From: a virus
Virus genome (UHGV): UHGV-0309737
Strand: one strand, 5' to 3'
Length of the DNA: 36,494 nt
Of the stretch, positions 163 through 10,358 are shown piece by piece (within the stretch, counting starts at the first letter, position 1; every line of letters begins with the position of its first letter). Below the pieces are notes generated by a model. That model worked only from the letters and a program-made list of their open reading frames with translations, had not been told where the DNA came from and searched no databases. Made by a program: the position numbers and the translations under genes.

Positions 163-1209
163 TCATTTTTTCTGACCGCCAACAACCGGCACAATTTTAG
201 TTTTCCTGTCATAAATCGCCGTTTGTCTCGAATTCTTATGACCAGAAATTGCCTGCTTCTCCTCGAGGCTTCCTTCCAGATCAGAGACACCTTTAGCCTT
301 CAGATCGTGAAATGTGAAGTCTATCTGCAGGTGTGGGTACTTCTCCTGTGCTGCAATTTTGGCTTCGCGCCAGCGTGAATTAAAACCGTCGCGAGTGTAT
401 TTACTGCCGCTGGTCTGGTGAATGACGAACAGGCTACGGATACCCGGCTTTAACGGCAGGGAACGGGCGAGGGCGACGGCAGCGCGGAGGCGTGGCGACC
501 ATGCCTTGATTTGCTTCACGCCTGTTTTCCCCTGGCGGATAAATATCCCGGTTTCCCGTATCTGGTCTTCAGTTAAAGCCAGCACATCGCTTTGTCTGGC
601 CAGACACAAATAAGCTATTTCCATGGTGGCGCGCACTACGTCCGGAGCAACATCGTAAACCGCTTTGTATTCTTCGTCGGTGATGTAACGCTCTCGGGCT
701 GTCTCTTTGAACTTCTTAACGCCCTGGCAGGGATTGTGCTGGACGTAACCCCGCTCGTAACCCCAGCGGAATACCCGCGAGAGAAAACTCTTTTCCCGGT
801 TGGCCTGCGTTTTACTGGCAATACCACGTTGATCCATATATCGCCGGATGTGTTCTGGTTTAATTTTATCAGGGTTAACTTTCCCGAATACTGGCAATAC
901 TTTTCCTGCGTATTTCGTATAGTCTTTTCTGGTTTCTGCCGCTAAATCCTGCCAGTCTGGAGACGCCATAAACTGCTCTGTGAGCGCCTGGAACGTTTTT
1001 CTTTCTGTCACTTCACCGACAGCTTTTTCATATGCCAGCCATACAGCGGATTGTGGTTCATTTAACCCACTCAGGCGGATCCCTTTGTTGTCTTTCGTAC
1101 GGAATTCAAATGCAGCCTTGCCCCGGTATACTCGCGGGGGCATCCAACTATCGGCAGGATTCTTTCGCTTTCCGGCCATCGAATATAGCTCCAAAATCAG
1201 GTTCGTCAT
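163..1209 (-). CDS. int: Tyrosine recombinase / phage integrase
   Basis: 348-aa ORF adjacent to tRNA att site; C-terminal catalytic region (...HDLKAKG...GH..SRQTAIYD...Y...) typical of lambda/P4-type integrases. Confidence 0.9.
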   Translation of the reverse strand: MTNLILELYSMAGKRKNPADSWMPPRVYRGKAAFEFRTKDNKGIRLSGLNEPQSAVWLAYEKAVGEVTERKTFQALTEQFMASPDWQDLAAETRKDYTKYAGKVLPVFGKVNPDKIKPEHIRRYMDQRGIASKTQANREKSFLSRVFRWGYERGYVQHNPCQGVKKFKETARERYITDEEYKAVYDVAPDVVRATMEIAYLCLARQSDVLALTEDQIRETGIFIRQGKTGVKQIKAWSPRLRAAVALARSLPLKPGIRSLFVIHQTSGSKYTRDGFNSRWREAKIAAQEKYPHLQIDFTFHDLKAKGVSDLEGSLEEKQAISGHKNSRQTAIYDRKTKIVPVVGGQKK

Positions 1210-1411
1210 TTTCGTGCGTTATATCTTCCTTCTGGCCGCGGTACTTGATCGGGTTCAGGAAGTGGCCCCATGTGGTTTTAGGGTGGCCATCTGCTCTTTC
1301 CATAAAGAAGATGCCGGCCCGGCGCAGCGCCTCACATTGTTTTGATTTAAGTGGCGTCCCCGTCAGCTCGATCATTTCCTCTCTGGTGATGATGTCGTGA
1401 TCGTGTCTCAT
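1148..1411 (-). CDS. xis: Excisionase-like (Xis) small DNA-binding protein
   Basis: 87 aa, overlaps int start, MIELTGTPLKSKQCEALRRAGIFF... resembles lambdoid excisionase/DUF1233-type; preceded by GAGGAAAGACCATG cassette. Confidence 0.7.
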   Translation of the reverse strand: MRHDHDIITREEMIELTGTPLKSKQCEALRRAGIFFMERADGHPKTTWGHFLNPIKYRGQKEDITHENDEPDFGAIFDGRKAKESCR

Positions 1412-1601
1412 GGTCTTTCCTCAGCATGCCGGCTATAGCGTTGTCTGCTGCATCGCAAGCGCGCTGGATATCGGACTGGGTCAGAGTCCTCTTTCTAACG
1501 CTGGCTGATAGCCTGCCAATTTTGATATCGAATTCTGAAAGTAAAACTACACCTGGTTGCCAACGTAGCATTGTGATCTCCGGTTTATTGGTAGACCACA
1601 A
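1347..1601 (-). CDS. Hypothetical small protein (start uncertain; internal ATG near 1571 more likely than TTG at 1601)
   Basis: ORF only; overlaps xis by 65 nt. Confidence 0.25.
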   Translation of the reverse strand: MWSTNKPEITMLRWQPGVVLLSEFDIKIGRLSASVRKRTLTQSDIQRACDAADNAIAGMLRKDHETRSRHHHQRGNDRADGDAT

Positions 1602-1807: not shown

Positions 1808-2374
1808 TCAGCGCACCTGCAGTGAACGTTCGCCTATTTCAATATGGGCGCCCGGAACAGGGTTTAAGAGCTCTTCCGGGATTTCCCCACCATCTGCGCT
1901 AATCTGAGCCGCTGCCGCTTCTGCTGACTCGATAGCCTCTTTGATTGCCTTTTTGTCAGGCGCAACTACTGTCTGAACAGTCACCAATTCATCCGGGAGT
2001 AAATCAACGTTATCGATCACCACGTTGATTGCACCTTTACGGGCGGTGAAGGTGTTTTTTGCCGTTTTTACGGTATCCTGTCCGGCGGCCAACAGGCACT
2101 GGAGAACATATTTCTTCAGGTTGGTGATCTTACCTTCGAAAGACTTTTTACGGGCGGCCAGGCGTTTGGCTTCTTCGTCGCAGGTTTTCGCCAGACCTTC
2201 AAGGTTGCGAACGTGGACGAATACCGCGTCCAGTTTGTCGCCGAGCTGCAGCTCGAGCCCCTCCATTGTATCGGCGATCATTTCAGCTGACAGACCAGAA
2301 CCGTCTTCGTTTTCAAGAAGCGCCTGGAGTTTAGACATATCAGCAGCGATAGCAATTGCGGTTGTGGAAGTCAT
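1808..2374 (-). CDS. Sipho_Gp157-family protein (accessory protein of phage recombination modules)
   Basis: 188 aa; coiled-coil N-terminus, conserved ...PDKKAIKEAIESAE...GERSLQVR C-terminus typical of Gp157 family; stop overlaps start of downstream recombinase. Confidence 0.7.
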   Translation of the reverse strand: MTSTTAIAIAADMSKLQALLENEDGSGLSAEMIADTMEGLELQLGDKLDAVFVHVRNLEGLAKTCDEEAKRLAARKKSFEGKITNLKKYVLQCLLAAGQDTVKTAKNTFTARKGAINVVIDNVDLLPDELVTVQTVVAPDKKAIKEAIESAEAAAAQISADGGEIPEELLNPVPGAHIEIGERSLQVR

Positions 2375-4518
2375 TATGCTTTCTCCTCGGCTTTATTCAG
2401 TTCTTTGATGCGGCCGTCTTTAATCGTAATGAGTCGGCGCAAGCGGCCAGACAGATAGCGTTCATGTTGCGCGTCACCGTTGGCCTGTGCGGCCTTAATG
2501 TGAACATCGATTTCACGTGCGATAGGGGAGAACACGCCGTTTATTTCGTTCACTGTCACGCCATGTGCCAGAGTGTTAGCAACACGGCTGAGTTTGTCGT
2601 CGAATTCCTGGCGAAGACGTACTGCGTCTTCTGCGGTTTCGCTGGCATTCTTCAGATCAAACTCTGCCTTGTTTCTCTGGCGGTATTCCAGATTGTCGTA
2701 AAGGCCCATGAAGATATCGCCACTGAAGCCGAGGCCAGATAAAGCCTTTTTGGTTGCATCAGTCAGCGATTTTTTTGTTGCCTCACCATCGCAGGTGATC
2801 CCGTACTTACTGCCGTAAATGTATGGCGTGCAACCGTAGGCCGTTTCCTCGCCGCGCACACCATTCAGGATGTACCAGAGTCGCACGGTAACGACGTGAT
2901 GCTGCTCGTTGACGGTATTTCCATTCCCGTCGAGCACTAACTCCCATGATGCATTGTTATCTTTCCCTTTCACCTGGCGTGTAATGGGGGCGCCGATATC
3001 GAAACGTTCCTCGAGGATGTCCACACCCCAGCCGATTCCCTTTGGCCCAAACTCGCGAGTGGCAAGCATGGTTAAATAGGTACCGTTGATCGAGGTACCG
3101 CCGCCGTTCTGCGTAAAGGCTTTAGTAAACCGTTCATCAGTTTTGAATACACGTTTCCACAGTTCTAAATTGTCCTGTCCGATACTCTGTGCGCCGGCAG
3201 ACTTCATTACTTCTTCAGCGTCAGGCAGTCTTTCAGCATGAATAATTTGCTTTGCCAGCACCTCGGCGTTATCAGCTATTGTTTCCGCTTTAGCGCTTAA
3301 CTTCTCTACTGGCTGTTCTGCATCACCAGAGGCATATACGCCATAGCCCATATCGTTGAGCGTCTCACGCGCCTGTTTGGCCTGGGTATCGGTTACCACC
3401 GGCTGTGGCGCTTCCGCTTTTTCGACCACGTTTGAGGTGGTATTTTGCGTTGCCTCTGGTTGTTTAACGGATCCTGTCTCGGTTTCTTCAAAGCGGCCGT
3501 TTGCTTCCAGCCATGAATCAATGTGGCGGCGTAGGCTGTCAGGGAAATGGTAGGTATCTTTTGCCGGTACGTTCTGCACTACGCCAAAAATACTGTCTCG
3601 GTCATATTTGAGAATGTGCTCCGTGGTGCGAAGCGCCATTGACCAACGTTTAAAATCTTCGCGCTCGTCTGCAATGATTTTCTCAGCATCGCGAAGGTTT
3701 CCTGATAATACTGGCGCGTCGGGAGAAATAGGGAGTAGGGCGACAGCGATCTCCTGATCCAGTGTTGCATAGGTATGTTTATAACCACGTTTTGGCGCGA
3801 TTTTAACGTTGGTATCAGTGCTGGCGGCGCCGAGTGAGGAATTTTGGCCTGGTACCATTTCTTCACGTTTGCCAGGATTCTCAAGCCAGCGTTTTACAAA
3901 TTGAGAAATAGCCGCTTTGCCCGGAGTCTGGTTTTCAAAATGGGAGAAAATGCCCTGAATAAGATTATTCAGCCCTTCAACATGCATGTGCTTAACTGGT
4001 TCGTTATTGTGCAGAGCACACAGAACGTTAAGGTTAAAACGATCTTCTTCTTCCAGTTCTGTATCACGGTTATTCAGGTTATCCAGATAATCCACAACCT
4101 GAGAATAAAGATGGCCATCAATTGCCGCGGTACTAAACAGCAGGACGGCAGCAAAGCGTTCGCCAGGAGAAACAGTCATCAGATCGATAACATCATCACC
4201 AGTGGGTAAATTTGATTCCTCACCGGCGGTACCGTTCGCGGCGATGGAAACCCATTTTTCACCGTCGAAAGTATGTTGCTGGGCGAATAGCTCGTCGAAC
4301 TGGCCAACGGTCGGCAGCGGCTGGCCTTCTTCGTGTTCCCACAGCTTCGGTTTAAAATAGTTGTCACCGTTCGCCGGGTAAGATTCCCAGAGTTTGCCGG
4401 TGATAATGCTTTCGGCGATTTTCTTGTTTGGTGCTTCGACGGCGATCGCCAGCTGCACGGCGCCGCAGTCTTTGATAGCCGATTTTTTTGGCTCGAATAA
4501 GCCGTTGTAGATGGTCAT
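2374..4518 (-). CDS. 714-aa recombination protein: C-terminal Rad52/Sak-type single-strand annealing domain with a ~450-aa N-terminal domain of unknown function
   Basis: Motif ...EETAYGCTPYIYG...EATKKSLTDATKKALSGLGFSG... matches Rad52/Sak signature (EAVTDALKRALRSFGNALG); position equals lambdoid bet/erf slot; GAGGAAAGACCAATG start cassette. Confidence 0.6.
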   Translation of the reverse strand: MTIYNGLFEPKKSAIKDCGAVQLAIAVEAPNKKIAESIITGKLWESYPANGDNYFKPKLWEHEEGQPLPTVGQFDELFAQQHTFDGEKWVSIAANGTAGEESNLPTGDDVIDLMTVSPGERFAAVLLFSTAAIDGHLYSQVVDYLDNLNNRDTELEEEDRFNLNVLCALHNNEPVKHMHVEGLNNLIQGIFSHFENQTPGKAAISQFVKRWLENPGKREEMVPGQNSSLGAASTDTNVKIAPKRGYKHTYATLDQEIAVALLPISPDAPVLSGNLRDAEKIIADEREDFKRWSMALRTTEHILKYDRDSIFGVVQNVPAKDTYHFPDSLRRHIDSWLEANGRFEETETGSVKQPEATQNTTSNVVEKAEAPQPVVTDTQAKQARETLNDMGYGVYASGDAEQPVEKLSAKAETIADNAEVLAKQIIHAERLPDAEEVMKSAGAQSIGQDNLELWKRVFKTDERFTKAFTQNGGGTSINGTYLTMLATREFGPKGIGWGVDILEERFDIGAPITRQVKGKDNNASWELVLDGNGNTVNEQHHVVTVRLWYILNGVRGEETAYGCTPYIYGSKYGITCDGEATKKSLTDATKKALSGLGFSGDIFMGLYDNLEYRQRNKAEFDLKNASETAEDAVRLRQEFDDKLSRVANTLAHGVTVNEINGVFSPIAREIDVHIKAAQANGDAQHERYLSGRLRRLITIKDGRIKELNKAEEKA

Positions 4519-4550
4519 TGGTCTTTCCTCGTTTGTAACTAATTCGCTGG

Positions 4551-4835
4551 TTAGGCGTCTTGTTTAATTTCAGGGAGCAGTCCAGCGATCACGCGTTCTG
4601 CCGTATTTTTTGCTTCTTCCAACTGCTTTAGTTCGCTTTCGAGATGAACCTTTTGGCTTTCTGCCAGTTCTTTAATTTCTGATGAATCGACCTTGAGATA
4701 GCACTCGCCGTTTCTACCTTCAGCTAAAATCCCGGAGGAGCGGCATTCGTTACTGCAAATATTGATAATTCTGTTTGCGCGATCTAAGCGGTCTTTAATT
4801 TCGCGAATTCTTTCAAGCAATTTTCTAATATCCAT
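4551..4835 (-). CDS. Hypothetical coiled-coil protein
   Basis: 94 aa ORF with GAGGAAAGACCATG start cassette. Confidence 0.5.
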   Translation of the reverse strand: MDIRKLLERIREIKDRLDRANRIINICSNECRSSGILAEGRNGECYLKVDSSEIKELAESQKVHLESELKQLEEAKNTAERVIAGLLPEIKQDA

Positions 4836-4878
4836 GGTCTTTCCTCTTGGTTGCAGGCGCAGGTCACGCGCCAGTTAA

Positions 4879-5202
4879 TTAAAACGGTACGTCGCTTTCT
4901 TCAATCGGAGAGTGGTCGATGCACAGCAGCTGCTGGATCTGGTCTTCAATAACGCTTAACTGTTTGTTGGCATCAGCAGATATTTGCTCTTTCTTCGCGC
5001 GAAGGGCATTAACCTGCATCCCGATAATATCGATAGGCTCTAAAGCAGGAATGGCAATCTCTACCGTTTTGGTAGTAACAAGCACGTACGAATCAGGATA
5101 TTTCTGTGACATGTCACAGGTGAATGAGTGATAAGACGTTGGTAGATATGGATTGGTTGTTGCCATAACGTAGATAGTTACGGGGATGGTAAGCGCTTCC
5201 AT
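4879..5202 (-). CDS. Hypothetical protein (first gene of leftward operon)
   Basis: ATG at 5202 with AAGGAG SD (MEALTIPVTIYV...); six-frame track extends it to a GTG at 5289 adding an Arg-rich N-terminus (see findings). Confidence 0.5.
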   Translation of the reverse strand: MEALTIPVTIYVMATTNPYLPTSYHSFTCDMSQKYPDSYVLVTTKTVEIAIPALEPIDIIGMQVNALRAKKEQISADANKQLSVIEDQIQQLLCIDHSPIEESDVPF

Positions 5203-5321
5203 AGCGACTCCTTGGTGATGTATACTCAGAGCCGATCGGCGACTCTGTCGTTGGTCTTTCCTCGCTACAGGGTTGGTCCCCTGTAGCACTCCTGGCGGAT
5301 TGGTCTCCGCTGGGGTAAATC

Positions 5322-5344
5322 AGCCCACTCCGGTGGGCTTTTTT
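5322..5344 (+). terminator. Intrinsic terminator, plus-strand orientation
   Basis: AGCCCAC-tccg-GTGGGCT followed by TTTTTT. Confidence 0.6.
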
Positions 5345-5357
5345 ACGCCTGAAGGTT

Positions 5358-5548
5358 GCCGGTCTTTCCCGGCTGTCAGGATGGTCAGTCCCATTGGTCT
5401 TTCCTCGTTACCGTGTGAAAAAAATGCCCCGGGCGCCGGGGCCAAGACTACACACAGCAATTCACATTCGTTGCGGTCTTTCCCGCATGTCATCGTACTG
5501 TCGGCGACCCGAAGAATTCTTGCCCGTCTTTCCGGACTGTCAGAACTG
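5358..5548 (-). repeat. Three ~28-bp direct repeats (GGTCTTTCC(C/G)G-N2-TGTCAG...) in PL leader region; each forms a small hairpin with GGAAAGA loop on the leftward transcript
   Basis: 5358-5388 gccGGTCTTTCCCGGcTGTCAGgatGGTCAG; 5473-5504 gcGGTCTTTCCCGCaTGTCAtcgtacTGTCGG; 5523-5548 cccGTCTTTCCGGacTGTCAGaactg. Confidence 0.7.
5418..5442 (-). terminator. Intrinsic terminator, minus-strand orientation, inside the PL leader
   Basis: 7-bp GC stem GCCCCGG-GCG-CCGGGGC; A-run 5418-5425 on plus strand gives a T-run after the stem on minus strand. Confidence 0.7.
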
Positions 5549-5586
5549 TTTCTGAACAACTGCCGCGTGGTTAGTGCGTCGTTGAT

Positions 5587-5645
5587 GTGGTGAATATTAA
5601 TAATGATAATATTATTGGTCAACATTAAAATATTAATAACGACAA
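5587..5645 (-). promoter_or_regulatory. Putative PL promoter with OL operators
   Basis: minus strand TTGACC(5617-5622 rc)-17 bp-TAATAT(5594-5599 rc); operator motif AATATTAATAA(T/C)G at 5593-5605 and 5629-5641, same motif as at OR. Confidence 0.55.
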
Positions 5646-5675
5646 TATTTTTTGTATGACGTTGATAAATTTAGA

Positions 5676-5704
5676 CAAAAAAAATCCCAGCGCGAAGCTG
5701 GGAT
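5676..5704 (-). terminator. Intrinsic terminator downstream of repressor gene
   Basis: minus strand: ATCCCAGC-ttcgc-GCTGGGAT followed by TTTTTTTT. Confidence 0.75.
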
Positions 5705-5726
5705 CGTTGTCACTTGAGGGGAGGCG

Positions 5727-6182
5727 TTATTGCTTTCGTGTGGCTAGTAACTCTCTAAATAAACGATCAAAACCTTCCACTTTCTCTTTTAAATCAGATA
5801 AATGCCGTTCTTTTTCGCTCTGTGGTAGTCTTTCATACAAATCAATGAGTTCTGCATGTTCTGGGCTAAGTAGCTTCCAGCCTGGCCCTGATCGATCTTC
5901 TAGATACTCACCTGACTTTCTAACGTAATTCATCATTTCAGCCAGATCAGGCCGAATCTCTTCTGGTTTCACTCCAAGAAGTGAGGCGAATTTTAAAGTG
6001 GCATCGGTATTTAGTGGCGTAGTGCCATTTAAGTAATGGCTTACTGACGCCTGCGTGCTGAAGCCAAGCACCTCCGCTGCCTTCTCCTGAGTCAGACGTA
6101 AAGTTACTTTTTTTTCGTTCCAGATTTCACGAAGGCGTTTAGCTGCTTCGCGTTCAACGGCGTCAATGGTTTTCTTTCTCAT
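5727..6182 (-). CDS. Prophage repressor, XRE-family HTH (CI-analogue) lacking S24/LexA-like peptidase domain
   Basis: 151 aa; N-terminal HTH (LTQEKAAEVLGFSTQASVSHYLNG); divergent from cro-like gene; C-terminal 90 aa have no Ser/Lys peptidase motifs. Confidence 0.8.
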   Translation of the reverse strand: MRKKTIDAVEREAAKRLREIWNEKKVTLRLTQEKAAEVLGFSTQASVSHYLNGTTPLNTDATLKFASLLGVKPEEIRPDLAEMMNYVRKSGEYLEDRSGPGWKLLSPEHAELIDLYERLPQSEKERHLSDLKEKVEGFDRLFRELLATRKQ

Positions 6183-6229
6183 GGAGGCATGTTATTCGCA
6201 AAATTAATCAAACTCTAAGGTCATTGGTA

Positions 6230-6265
6230 TTGACGAAAAATATTAACGTTATTAATATTCATAAT
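6230..6265 (+). promoter_or_regulatory. Putative PR promoter with palindromic OR operator
   Basis: TTGACG(6230-6235)-17 bp-TAATAT(6253-6258); operator AATATTAACG/CGTTATTAATATT 6239-6259 (inverted copies of the OL motif). Confidence 0.6.
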
Positions 6266-6285
6266 GTTCAATCACAGAGGCCTTA

Positions 6286-6522
6286 ATGATGAAACTGAAA
6301 GACTACTTAAAAACATCTGGTGTTCGTCAGCATGAGTTCGCCGTACTAGTTGGGAAAACTCAAGGCTATGTAAGCCGAATCGCTGCTGGGGAATGCTTTC
6401 TGTCTGCTGCATCAGCATTGGTATGGTCAGCAGCAACTAATTACCAGGTAACTCCACACGATCTGCTCCCAAGCATTTATCGGAAGCCAACCGATGGACT
6501 ACCAGAACAGGATGCAGCTTAA
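6286..6522 (+). CDS. Cro-like HTH regulator (YdaS/Cro family)
   Basis: 78 aa, HTH (VRQHEFAVLVGKTQGYVSRIAAG), divergent to repressor. Confidence 0.75.
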   Translation: MMKLKDYLKTSGVRQHEFAVLVGKTQGYVSRIAAGECFLSAASALVWSAATNYQVTPHDLLPSIYRKPTDGLPEQDAA

Positions 6523-6540
6523 CAATCTGCGTGATCTAAA

Positions 6541-6558
6541 TCTGATTACGCTTAATCA
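6541..6558. repeat. 18-bp palindromic element TCTGATTACGCTTAATCA (copy 2); identical copy at 1626-1643
   Basis: exact 18/18 identity; inverted half-sites TGATTA/TAATCA. Confidence 0.8.
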
Positions 6559-6582
6559 ATTTTCAGCGACAGGAGACGCGAA

Positions 6583-7029
6583 GTGGAGAACCTCGAGGAA
6601 CTGAAACGAGAGATATTCAGCTGGGCAGCTGAAAGCGGGCAGGAGCTGGTTGCTATCGAGATAAGCCGTATGTGGTTTCGTCTCGGTGGTAACACCGGCG
6701 TGCTGAAGCTGCACCAGATTGAAGATGCAGACGGAAATGCAGACTGGCGGGCCATCAACAATAACCGCCAACAGATTTTTCGCTGGCTGCGTGGTGAGAC
6801 GAAAGCGGCCAGAACTAAAACCCAGACGCTGGCTAAAGCGATGGAAGCGGCACTGCCGGCAGAACGCTACGCGCGCCTGGACATGTCCACCCAGTATTTG
6901 ATCTGCGTCGCTATACGCGAATTTGCGGCGGCCATTATCGCGTTATTGCTCGAGGCCAGAGACGGCCCGCAGCAAGTCGCGAAGGCATTGCAAGCGATGC
7001 GAGAAACACAGCGCCTGACCAGCGTTTAA
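6583..7029 (+). CDS. YdaT-like (CII-analogue) regulator
   Basis: 148 aa following Cro-like gene as in Rac ydaS-ydaT; ...RQQIFRWLRGETK... resembles YdaT ...QKIFRWVEKDT...; GTG start. Confidence 0.6.
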   Translation: MENLEELKREIFSWAAESGQELVAIEISRMWFRLGGNTGVLKLHQIEDADGNADWRAINNNRQQIFRWLRGETKAARTKTQTLAKAMEAALPAERYARLDMSTQYLICVAIREFAAAIIALLLEARDGPQQVAKALQAMRETQRLTSV

Positions 7030-7049
7030 CCTGTACCGAGGAAAGACCA

Positions 7050-7271
7050 ATGAGAACACAAGACCGCATCACCTGGCGGAACGGGTTTCGCCGGAACGGG
7101 GTACAAGTCCCGATGGAAGATATCGAATCGATTTTCGAAGAACGTCGCACAGCTGCGCTGACAATCTGGGAGCGCTACGAATTACGCAAAGCAGTCCTGC
7201 AGGAAGCGGGGCTCACCCAGAAAGAATACGAAATCGCCTGCCGCCAGCTGGCTGACTCGCTGGGGATCTGA
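7050..7271 (+). CDS. Hypothetical protein
   Basis: 73 aa; ACCGAGGAAAGACCAATGA start cassette. Confidence 0.5.
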   Translation: MRTQDRITWRNGFRRNGVQVPMEDIESIFEERRTAALTIWERYELRKAVLQEAGLTQKEYEIACRQLADSLGI

Positions 7272-7273
7272 CG

Positions 7274-8266
7274 ATGAATATTTTGCCATTACTCGACAGG
7301 CCGATCGCCTTCCAGCGTAGTTTCATTCGTCTGAATATTGGTGTGACGGCTGCACTGTTCCTGTCTCAAATGACTTACTGGACTAACCGATCCGACGATG
7401 ACGGATGGGTATATAAAACCCAGGAAGAATGGGAGGAAGAAACAGGGCTTTCCCGTTACGAGCAGGAGGGGGCGCGTAAGAAACTTCGCTCAATTGGTGT
7501 ACTGCTGGAAAAAAAGAAAGGTGTACCTGCTCGTCTTTTCTACAAGATTGATAATGATGTTTTATTTCAAGCGCTTGTAGCCGCAAACAAGGATGCGGAA
7601 AAACCACATACTGGAATGCGGAAAACCAGCAAGCAAGTAAGTGGAAAACCAGCAAACTTTCTTACAGAGAATACTACAGAGAATATATATACCCCTAACC
7701 CCTTAGAGGGGGAAGGCGTTGAGATAATTCTTTCTGATGCACAAAAAGCGCTGGAATTTTACAACGAGCAAACCGGTACCCGCTGCCGTGACCTGAAACC
7801 GTTTGTGATGATGCTGACGCCGACCACCACCCGGGCAGGGTACACCCTGGATGAATTGCAGTTAGTTATCCGCTGGGTTCTGGCCACATGGCGCCGCCGT
7901 GGCGATAGCCTGCCGAAGCCAGCGAACATCTGCCGGGTAAACCGTTTTGATGGTTATCTCGCTGACGCTGCAGCATGGGAGATGACCGAAACCGACATTG
8001 ATCCGGAAGCCGTTATGAACGGCTACAACGAAATTTTTGCTGACGTTCTGCCTGCTGCTGAACTGGATACCGACCGCCGCCGGATGATCGCCCAGCTTGC
8101 CGCACACATGAAAAACAAAACCACGGGCGCATTTTTGGGGTATTTCGAAAAATTCCGCGCTGATGCGTCAGATTTTTATTTCGGTGCTAACGGCGGATGG
8201 CGCGCCAGCTTTGACTACCTGATGAAACCTGAAACGTTACGTAAAACCCGGGAAGGTTCGCTATGA
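7274..8266 (+). CDS. Phage replication initiation / replisome organiser protein (O-like)
   Basis: 330 aa directly upstream of and overlapping helicase gene; replisome-organiser-like N-terminus. Confidence 0.55.
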   Translation: MNILPLLDRPIAFQRSFIRLNIGVTAALFLSQMTYWTNRSDDDGWVYKTQEEWEEETGLSRYEQEGARKKLRSIGVLLEKKKGVPARLFYKIDNDVLFQALVAANKDAEKPHTGMRKTSKQVSGKPANFLTENTTENIYTPNPLEGEGVEIILSDAQKALEFYNEQTGTRCRDLKPFVMMLTPTTTRAGYTLDELQLVIRWVLATWRRRGDSLPKPANICRVNRFDGYLADAAAWEMTETDIDPEAVMNGYNEIFADVLPAAELDTDRRRMIAQLAAHMKNKTTGAFLGYFEKFRADASDFYFGANGGWRASFDYLMKPETLRKTREGSL

Positions 8267-9651: not shown

Positions 9652-9689
9652 CCGCGCCTGACCAGCGCGATATAACCGAGGAAAGACCA

Positions 9690-10358
9690 ATGACCACGAA
9701 TTTAAATTACCCAAAACCAGTTAATCCGGATGATGGCTGCAACTGGTTACCCGTTATTTTATGGCGCATGAACGCCGGCGCCCGCGCGCGTAGTCGTTCT
9801 GTATTTGTTGCCGCACCGCGACCAGAACCAGTGCCGGGGATTACTCCGCAAAAGCCAATTAAACGCGAAGCGCCGCTGCCAGCAGTTTCAGGCCGTCGCC
9901 GTAAAACCCATCTCGGTACCGTGATTTATTCCAAAGGCGAAAAAACCGTGCGCCTGAGCGAAGGTGTCACCGTCTGGTCTGCCGGCGCTAATGAGCATTT
10001 CGATAAAAAGACCGGTCAGCGTGTCGGCGGTGCTGGCCGTCATCGCCTGGTACTCGACAGTGTTCGTCCGCTGCTTGCCAGCGACGATCAACCCGGCGCC
10101 GGGAAAGTTACCGCGCAGCAGCTGGTCGCCGTCATGAAAGGTAAAACTCTTTCTTATCAGACCATTCTCGGCCAGCTACAGAAACACTATCCAGAATGCC
10201 AGGTAACGATTAAAGAAATTCAGGATCGTGTATTCAGCATGTTCAATTCGAACTATGTCGGCATCACTCGCCATGATGATACGCCAGTGGTTCATTTCAC
10301 GCTTAACAGCGTGGATCCCCGTTATTACGTCGAGTCAGCGAAAAACAAGAGGGTGTAA
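9690..10358 (+). CDS. Hypothetical nin-region protein
   Basis: 222 aa; ACCGAGGAAAGACCAATGA start cassette. Confidence 0.5.
   Translation: MTTNLNYPKPVNPDDGCNWLPVILWRMNAGARARSRSVFVAAPRPEPVPGITPQKPIKREAPLPAVSGRRRKTHLGTVIYSKGEKTVRLSEGVTVWSAGANEHFDKKTGQRVGGAGRHRLVLDSVRPLLASDDQPGAGKVTAQQLVAVMKGKTLSYQTILGQLQKHYPECQVTIKEIQDRVFSMFNSNYVGITRHDDTPVVHFTLNSVDPRYYVESAKNKRV

Follow-up and report, generated by a model that had tools for sequence, protein, structure and literature searches.

The DNA analysed here, referred to as the window, is the 36,494-nucleotide (nt) virus genome UHGV-0309737, which is a lambdoid prophage. The subject is the stretch between its repressor gene and the first gene of its leftward operon, where the untranslated leader of the leftward promoter, PL, is located. 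An earlier note on this DNA had described an unusually complex leader, with three repeated hairpins and two opposing terminators, and had wavered between antitermination and a small leftward RNA. On balance, we lean towards an extended form of the latter, in which the region comprises PL, its operators (OL) and two small RNA genes that converge and have a terminator each, rather than one antitermination leader. The elements on which this reading depends are listed below by coordinates and strand.

4879-5202, minus strand: first leftward gene (phrog_2479), 107 aa, with ATG at 5202 and a Shine-Dalgarno (SD) sequence at 5208-5213
5221-5226, plus strand: -10 element TATACT, with GATC (5234-5237) 7 nt on, at the predicted start
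5234-5345, plus strand: putative small RNA of ~112 nt with conserved structure, antisense to the untranslated 5' region (5' UTR) of the first PL gene, supported by covariation
5251-5264, plus strand: single-stranded 5' tip UUGGUCUUUCCUCG, complementary to a repeated ribosome-binding-site (RBS) cassette
5264-5287, plus strand: hairpin H1, GCUACAGGG-UUGGUC-CCCUGUAGC, supported by covariation
5290-5315, plus strand: hairpin H2, loop UUGGUC, supported by covariation
5322-5344, plus strand: intrinsic terminator of the plus-strand RNA, stem 5322-5339 followed by a T-run, -13.8 kcal/mol
5418-5442, minus strand: intrinsic terminator of the leader, stem 5426-5442 with 7 G-C pairs and U7 at 5418-5424, -15.0 kcal/mol
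5444-5461, minus strand: 18-mer AUUGCUGUGUGUAGUCUU, identical to RprA in the alignment with K-12 rprA, presumed seed
5418-5587, minus strand: PL leader RNA of ~170 nt, candidate RprA-like small RNA precursor from Rfam and conservation, ending at the leader terminator
5594-5622, minus strand: promoter PL, TTGACC-17-TAATAT, from the promoter scan
5727-6182, minus strand: cI-like helix-turn-helix repressor gene, with its own terminator at 5683-5705 on the minus strand

The promoter scan confirms PL at 5622-5594. As had been noted before, the transcript runs leftward through the repeats R3 and R2 and then meets a strong terminator ahead of any gene, and both opposing terminators flanking the leader are present and conserved. 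A prophage 97% identical to the window lies in an E. coli chromosome, adjoining tRNA genes. Its RefSeq start for the first leftward gene agrees with ATG 5202, and the 524 bp between that gene and the repressor gene carry no annotation in that prophage.

Leftward leader RNA

The first 25 nt of the leader were found in 91 related IMG/VR contigs, under many differing promoter and operator sequences. In these contigs, leader conservation starts directly after the -10 element of PL, at CAT followed by CAACGACG, which places the transcription start near 5586-5587. In an exact scan of genome contigs, the 25-mer was found in just two species representatives, Citrobacter murliniae and Raoultella lignicola. 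Of 5426 complete E. coli genomes, 454 (~8%) contain the 5' part of the leader, which is never annotated there.

A permissive Rfam search matched positions 5416-5517 of the minus strand to RprA (RF00034), with 37.7 bits, E = 0.033 and the full model, positions 1-108, aligned. In comparison with E. coli K-12 rprA, 22 consecutive bases of the leader, AUUGCUGUGUGUAGUCUU.GCCC, are identical from RprA position 60 onwards, after which the terminator follows. Cleavage of RprA by RNase E yields a shorter form (PMC6202311), which corresponds to the last 47 nt and regulates by itself (PMC9262595). Given that the last 47 of the 106 annotated nt start at position 60, counting from the annotated 3' end, the identical block begins where processed RprA begins, and the last ~44 nt of the leader match this active form. 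In the Rfam alignment, the R2 hairpin and the AACGAAU segment are likewise placed on the second stem-loop and linker of RprA. With its single-stranded seed, a hairpin of G-C pairs and a tail of U7, the leader has the architecture of an Hfq-dependent small RNA (sRNA), and it may bind Hfq. As judged from its sequence, the leader thus seems to be the precursor, ~170 nt long, of an RprA-like sRNA, whose expression, processing, Hfq dependence, targets and regulatory outcome we infer. This is the option of a small leftward RNA (~5587 to 5418) raised in the earlier note, and it is favoured by the Rfam match, the 22 shared bases and a 3' module interchangeable with the DicF seed at dicF loci (see below).

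The 17-mer core TTGCTGTGTGTAGTCTT, in nearly all cases with an A ahead of it, occurs in >119 viral contigs (a few of which probably match through host rprA genes within over-long prophage calls), with many unrelated upstream sequences and >30 terminator types. Among relatives of the window, the stem of the leader terminator varies freely under a constant leader, and an attenuator-type alternative pairing with that terminator was rejected on this ground. Within the window, only 9-10-nt matches at chance level were found as phage-internal targets of the 18-mer.

The divergent leader family of the 454 complete E. coli genomes was read at one locus, U14A (L205, 2925-2965 on the plus strand), where the seed is AUUUGCUGUGUUUAGUC, with two changes from RprA; it may be a natural variant with an altered target range. 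In L097, L144, L159 and other loci, the terminator is long and branched and encloses an SD-like AAGGGG and an ATG (e.g. GGCGGTACCAGGGTCTTCAACCTTATACAAGGGGGACGAAGATAATGTTC...), which could be a small open reading frame (ORF) or a toxin-like element.

Relation to DicF and other phage small RNAs

The 3' module is also present in an otherwise dissimilar prophage of LexA type, where it stands at the end of ~960 nt of non-coding sequence separating the repressor gene from the first leftward gene, and matches Rfam RprA with 41 bits. In L152, L162 and L102, the module scores as DicF (RF00039), with 38-43 bits against a gathering score of 48. When three viral contigs are aligned with the dicF locus of K-12, the terminator scaffolds are similar and the downstream flanks nearly identical, and only the DicF seed is exchanged for the RprA-like 18-mer. 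Owing to this allelism, positions 5418-5461 belong with the sRNAs of prophage early operons, with an alternative seed. Positions 4000-7500 of the window themselves contain no DicF match at E<=10. Rfam matches to STnc100 adjoin the DicF-like modules in L152, L162 and L102.

In comparison with RprA, the window leader shares the 18-nt single-stranded segment and the first terminator bases, and some relatives of the leader share most of the RprA terminator sequence. The two differ in their 5' halves, which are unrelated, and in their control: RprA has an RcsB-dependent promoter between ydiK and ydiL, whereas the window RNA belongs to a prophage and to a repressor-controlled PL. The window module also serves as the first terminator of an operon, which RprA does not. 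With DicF, made from the dicB operon of the Qin prophage, the window RNA shares a place in an early operon beside the immunity genes (the dicA-ydfABC-dicF-dicB layout of K-12) and a 3' end at an intrinsic terminator, which is partly read through in the case of DicF and predicted to be so in the window. However, DicF has an ftsZ-directed seed, UUUCUGGUGACGUUUGG, where the window has an RprA-like one, and the window terminator is not DicF-like; moreover, the window module is the very first element after PL.

Phage sRNAs that arise at terminators of regulated operons are known. Lambda PreS (LPR1) is made at tL2a of the PL operon, in the lytic cycle only, and is bound by Hfq (bioRxiv 10.1101/2024.10.31.621285), while StxS is born at tR' (PMC7547250). 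PreS is a functional precedent for the window RNA, yet neither has a sequence relationship to it or carries the seed of a core-genome sRNA, and PreS lies further down its operon. HnrS and PreS were discarded as matches to the leader RNA, being different RNAs. In the literature searched by name and by sequence, no description of either of the two RNAs proposed here, of any phage RNA like RprA, or of these motifs was found.

Putative plus-strand RNA

The earlier note had treated a palindrome at 5266-5290 and the plus-strand terminator as mere accessories of the leader. The palindrome is real, with a stem of 9 bp (5264-5272 with 5279-5287, loop TTGGTC) rather than the 8 bp reported. Together with the terminator it seems to form a second, convergent small RNA of ~112 nt.

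An alignment of 34 distinct homologues of 5195-5350 was analysed. In H1 and H2 taken together, 97.2% of the cells are paired; shuffles give 85.6% (none of 500 attains the observed value) and slid controls 45-54%. Compensatory changes affect 11 of the 19 pairs. In H1, 98.7% of the cells are paired, eight of nine pairs show compensatory changes, and single changes give G.U pairs on the plus strand. In H2, 95.8% are paired; in many homologues it cannot form on the minus strand, given that 3-4 G.U pairs would become A.C mismatches. Wobble cells valid on the plus strand only number 241, as opposed to 10 valid on the minus strand only. The UUGGUC loops are conserved throughout the homologues, and the terminator has three covarying stem types, all followed by T4-7 on the plus strand.

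Upstream, T-A-T-A-x-T is invariant in the 34 homologues while its flanks vary. Divergent lineages have TATAAT, TAGAAT or TACAAT as the -10 element, always 6-7 nt ahead of GATC, and three of them have the TG of an extended -10. This spacing is found in every lineage examined, eight in all (the window, L101, L120, L121, L139, L178, L185 and L205). The GATC (Dam) site at the predicted start may point to methylation-sensitive transcription.

A covariance model, named R1 like the first repeat, was built from 16 plus-strand sequences. It scores 106 bits at 5250-5344 of the plus strand, which is the only copy in the window, and also matches prophages with other leaders in six further lineages, where each RNA is convergent with the 18-mer module. 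The RNA lies across the 5' UTR that precedes the first leftward gene, 32 nt ahead of ATG 5202. Rfam matches of the plus strand to rsmX, isrB and toxic sRNA were dismissed, as their scores of 18-21 bits are far below threshold.

Lambda OOP, P22 sar and P1 c4 are cis-antisense RNAs of phages, and the YUNR motif is common in the loops of antisense RNAs. The window RNA resembles these three in being short, in ending at an intrinsic terminator, in being convergent with a regulated phage operon and in overlapping a sequence of the translation-initiation type; its loops (UUGG) also fit YUNR. It has no sequence relationship to them, and its predicted start is a GATC site. Unlike them, it could act in trans on a regulon, as the cassette matched by its 5' tip recurs at many genes of both arms.

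Ribosome-binding-site cassette

Five early genes, distributed over both arms, have GAGGAAAGACCA(A)TG as their working RBS, always in sense orientation, which accounts for five of the nine GGAAAGACC sites. The copies are as follows.

1412-1422, minus strand: RBS cassette at a gene start, sense orientation
4520-4530, minus strand: RBS cassette at a gene start, sense orientation
4836-4846, minus strand: RBS cassette at a gene start, sense orientation
5392-5406, minus strand: RBS cassette copy GAGGAAAGACCAATG, with no conserved ORF behind it
7038-7052, plus strand: RBS cassette at a gene start, sense orientation
9678-9692, plus strand: RBS cassette at a gene start, sense orientation

The tip of the plus-strand RNA is complementary to this repeated cassette, GAGGAAAGACCAAUG. 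The tip carries UUGGUCUUUCC, and the single-stranded stretch UUGGUCUUUCCUC precedes the hairpins; within the tip segment, GGTCTTTCCT is invariant in all 34 homologues. The complementarity reaches 14/14 at the initiation regions of the genes starting at 4518 (minus strand) and 9691 (plus strand), 20/21 at the gene starting at 7050 (plus strand), and 12/12 at those starting at 1411 and 4835 (both on the minus strand). Loci with the plus-strand RNA have 3.9 cassettes per 10 kb, against 0.12 at loci without it.

Across lineages the tip and the cassette change together, giving GAGGAAAGACC, GAGGCAUGACC and GGAGCAUAACC. Matching tips and cassettes at real gene starts are GAGGCATGACCAATG in L101, GGAGCATAACCAATG in L139 and L121, and TCTAGGAAAGACCAAT in L185 (16/16); the L101 cassette to which the tip is antisense starts an ORF of 891 codons. 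This co-variation fits a functional pairing, and it also fits a concerted evolution of the cassette copies. The sequence CTGACCAGCG, upstream of two rightward cassette copies, is the same motif as the loops of the second type of leader hairpin.

Start-associated sequences are a feature of cluster K mycobacteriophages. They are comparable in forming a conserved 13-15-nt block over the SD sequence and spacer of many genes, in sense orientation only. They differ from the cassette in sequence and in hosts, and the window adds a complementary small RNA beside PL.

Leader repeats and hairpins

The direct-repeat search recovered the three repeats of the earlier note, at 75-88% identity, with a length of 24 nt rather than the 28 reported. 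The GAAAGA-loop hairpins are likewise present on the minus-strand RNA, with stems of 5 bp instead of 4 bp.

5356-5379, strand not assigned: repeat R1, 24 nt
5358-5373, strand not assigned: R1 hairpin, GCCGG-GAAAGA-CCGGC, between the two terminators
5470-5493, strand not assigned: repeat R2, 24 nt
5472-5487, minus strand: R2 hairpin, UGCGG-GAAAGA-CCGCA, aligned by Rfam with the second stem-loop of RprA
5520-5543, strand not assigned: repeat R3, 24 nt
5522-5537, minus strand: R3 hairpin, GUCCG-GAAAGA-CGGGC, with compensatory changes
5540-5555, minus strand: hairpin A, UCAGAA-ACAG-UUCUGA, predicted fold, invariant in 14/14 distinct leaders
5559-5576, minus strand: leader 5' arm CACUAACCACGCGGCAGU, predicted to pair with the RprA-like seed

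Nine copies of the core GGAAAGACC are found in the window, where 0.2 are expected, and 0 of 100 shuffles reach nine. The R1 stem has the compensatory variants GCCGG/CCGGC (54), GCCCG/CGGGC (18) and CCCGG/CCGGG (3), and its single-side variants are divided 3 vs 2 between the strands. In the R3 stem, 95.6% of cells are paired among 14 distinct homologues, with compensatory changes in four of five pairs; the second pair is U.G (60), C-G (11) or U-A (4), the U.G wobble being valid on the minus strand only. Over the leader hairpins, 71 wobble pairs are valid solely on the PL-sense strand, as against 2 of the opposite kind. The GAAAGA loop is invariant while the stems change, and the R3 hairpin is present in every leader variant that retains the motif. 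In the divergent U14A leader of E. coli, GAAAGA hairpins are retained with new stems, GAGG-GAAAGA-CUUC being found at the R2 position. Covariation cannot be tested for hairpin A, given that its sequence is invariant in all 14 leaders.

The leader RNA folds with z=-2.5. The minimum-free-energy fold pairs the 5' arm (leader nt 13-30) with the 18-mer in a long-range helix at every insert size, from 124 to 754 nt, and does so in an unrelated leader as well. This helix is no stronger than the shuffled-seed control and is lost in the divergent U14A leader, and is thus kept as a prediction only.

Inserts between R2 and the 18-mer, some of them coding, lengthen this distance in relatives from 124 nt to as much as 754 nt. 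Those of 300-630 nt are found at L003:3240-3620 (minus strand), L004, L001:4200-4560 (minus strand) and L199:3440-3990 (plus strand). One insert type looks strongly structured (CACCACAATCAAAGAGCG ... CGCTCTTTTTGATTGTGGTG), and several have a repeated hairpin, GAGAGCGCACTYC ... GGCGGAGTGCGCTCC. In L202, L005, L039, L062, L010 and L068, the conserved leader (its first ~120 nt) enters an ORF directly after the R3 hairpin; hence, the stretch from the 5' leader to the 18-mer and terminator can carry cargo genes.

Three further candidates were rejected. An internal promoter in R3 (CTGACA-16-AAGAAT, 5543-5516) has ACGAAT, GCGAAT or GCGGAT as its -10 element in relatives. The 24-codon ORF behind the cassette at 5392-5406 loses its ATG, which becomes ACG in L002 and AAG in L003. 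A 101-codon ORF at 5320-5625 spans both promoter and terminator.

Prophage context

The genes and operators surrounding the region are the following.

163-1209, minus strand: int, leftward arm
1148-1411, minus strand: xis, leftward arm
2374-4518, minus strand: exonuclease, 714 aa; a Gam-like gene and two small genes are also on the leftward arm
5593-5613, no strand: OL1-like operator, overlapping the -10 element of PL, from the direct-repeat search
5629-5649, no strand: OL2-like operator AATATTAATAACGACAATATT, AATATT-N9-AATATT, from the direct-repeat search
6286-6522, plus strand: cro-like gene, followed by YdaT, RepO and DnaB on the rightward arm

The 21-bp operator AATATT-N9-AATATT has three copies, of which 5593-5613 and 5629-5649 flank PL and 6239-6259 lies over the -10 element of the rightward promoter, PR. 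Relatives with the same leader have quite different operators, which makes them different immunity types. Two records labelled 'Stenotrophomonas phage', OM816834.1 (L001) and OM816835.1, both of them relatives, are the sole matches in the phage collection at blastn sensitivity. They have an int-xis-exo-cI-cro-YdaT type of synteny and 83% identity to the enterobacterial prophage family, and the host label is odd.

Proposed mechanism

The furthest-reaching account is a two-RNA gate that would guard PL in this widespread group of enterobacterial prophages. The plus-strand RNA would be a master translational repressor, acting with its tip and loops on the house cassette as an RNA layer of immunity that co-evolves with the cassette across lineages; on induction, the leader RNA would release a copy of processed RprA, with a seed exchangeable with that of DicF, and take over part of the Rcs/RprA regulon. 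We present this full account tentatively, as possible rather than probable.

In the more restrained reading with two convergent small RNA genes, which we favour slightly, when the repressor leaves OL, PL would make an RNA of ~170 nt, from 5587 to ~5418. It would be composed of hairpin A, R3, R2, the 18-nt single-stranded RprA seed and the strong intrinsic terminator. Given that this terminator lies directly behind the seed, it would have two jobs, as the 3' end of the sRNA and as a throttle on the operon. It would provide the hairpin and U-tail typical of Hfq-dependent sRNAs, and the exo/gam/xis/int operon would be reached by read-through only. Either whole or cut just ahead of AUUGCUG, as in RprA, the leader RNA would pair with the host mRNAs of processed RprA, such that a derepressed phage would partly rewire the Rcs/RprA regulon. 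DicF of the Qin prophage and lambda PreS (tL2a) offer an analogy, being made and acting likewise. The plus-strand RNA would start at GATC and end at its own terminator, and would be antisense solely to transcripts extending past the leader terminator. It would repress these and possibly also the cassette-bearing early genes on both arms.

Several results weigh against this reading. For the leader, the RprA match of 37.7 bits is below the Rfam gathering score of 70 bits, and the window has no RprA match at the gathering threshold. In the rpoS-pairing segment of RprA (UCCCCUG ... AACGAAUU), AACGAAU is kept and UCCCCUG is absent. The energies of duplexes with the rpoS leader do not differ from those of shuffles and are uninformative on rpoS activation by the leader RNA. 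The 18-mer is not absolutely fixed either, given the two changes in the divergent U14A seed. For the plus-strand RNA, no convincing -35 element was found and the promoter scan did not call a promoter, and its promoter can thus only be presumed. Since the antisense locus itself holds a cassette copy, the match between tip and cassette could come from shared descent or concerted evolution alone. The RefSeq records inspected have no annotation for either RNA. Finally, the model leaves unexplained how polymerase passes a terminator with 7 G-C pairs and U7 to express xis and int, and it gives no role to the GAAAGA hairpins.

Alternative explanations

The leader could instead be a cis-acting RNA like put of HK022, which folds on the nascent transcript and modifies polymerase, such that both the leader terminator and later ones are read through without N. 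A strong terminator ahead of the whole leftward operon, with no N-like gene, is what such an RNA would account for, and the leader is conserved from +1 under many differing immunity regions and contains covarying hairpins. However, put of HK022 is a PL/PR pair, whereas no second copy was found after PR or elsewhere in the window, and no other phage record is similar at blastn sensitivity beyond the two relatives. In addition, the sole part common to unrelated leaders is the 18-mer with its terminator, i.e., an sRNA-type module allelic with DicF, and the leader of relatives accommodates insertions of 160-630 nt between its hairpins and the terminator, some of them coding. We thus regard the put-like reading, which the earlier note had entertained and which gained no positive support here, as unlikely.

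It is also improbable that the region is evolutionary debris, with repeats that recombination between mosaic prophages left from gene starts or module-junction cassettes and that have no function as RNA, and with terminators that insulate PL from convergent transcription. Debris would not give stems kept by compensatory changes around invariant loops, strand-specific covariation in H1 and H2, an 18-mer kept under >30 differing terminators, or a spacing of -10 and GATC kept in divergent lineages. The idea that the repeats are remnants of deleted gene starts does hold for the non-hairpin copies at 5251-5273 and 5394-5416, which are copies of the RBS cassette without a conserved ORF, and fails for the others. 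Consistent with debris, five early genes use GAGGAAAGACCA(A)TG as their working RBS, relatives have anything from one to three cassette units between the terminators, and inserts come and go.

A third explanation, compatible with the two-RNA reading, is that the hairpins are a decoy or landing pad for a protein, in which the GGA-containing GAAAGA hairpins and the cassette bind CsrA, the distal face of Hfq (through A-R-N repeats) or a phage regulator of translation, and in which the leader serves to titrate or recruit the protein. The same 9-mer is found in the loops of the leader hairpins and over the SD sequence of five early genes, relatives have up to seven copies, and the loop is invariant while the stems change. 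Yet Pfam and PHROG reveal no candidate protein among the window proteins, and the motif departs from the CsrA consensus. We attach a low probability to this explanation.

Less probable is a sponge, in which the invariant 5' arm would sequester host RprA on induction instead of mimicking it. The arm is predicted to pair with AUUGCUGUGUGUAGU of RprA over ~16 bp at -20 kcal/mol, but the leader's own copy of the seed would occupy it, the pairing energy is no better than that of shuffled seeds in the wider set, and the pairing is lost in the divergent U14A leader.

Antitermination of the N/nut type, with the GAAAGA hairpins as boxB analogues and an Arg-rich protein that might be the ORF extended to GTG 5289, is already contradicted and has the slightest probability of all: the short G-C stems with purine-rich loops near PL and the presence of ARKDQRQSRRSA in the extended frame speak for it, but the loop is a hexaloop and not a GNRA-like pentaloop, no boxA was found on the leader strand at 5150-7100 with either CGCTCTTA (<=1 mismatch) or the rrn boxA (<=3 mismatches), the GAAAGAC sites of the plus strand (6297, 7041 and 9681) do not form hairpins and there is no hairpin copy downstream of cro, the window proteins match no N family in Pfam or PHROG, and the GTG extension is not conserved, as relatives have indels and an in-frame TAA just ahead of the ATG, in a stretch that is constrained by the structure of the plus-strand RNA encoded there.

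Significance

The phage module carries the exact seed of RprA, a core-genome sRNA, and trades places with the seed of DicF on a common scaffold. Phage sRNAs that originate at terminators, such as DicF, PreS and StxS, are only now being recognised as tools to take over host regulation. The exchange and the wide distribution of the module suggest that seeds are shuffled as modules among prophage sRNAs ("seed shuffling"), and that the active half of RprA may have originated in phages or been captured by them. An antisense RNA matched to a repeated RBS cassette offers, in turn, a testable idea of how lambdoid prophages without N may silence both early operons, and the antisense-cassette pair suggests a possible purpose for the start-associated repeats of phage genomes.

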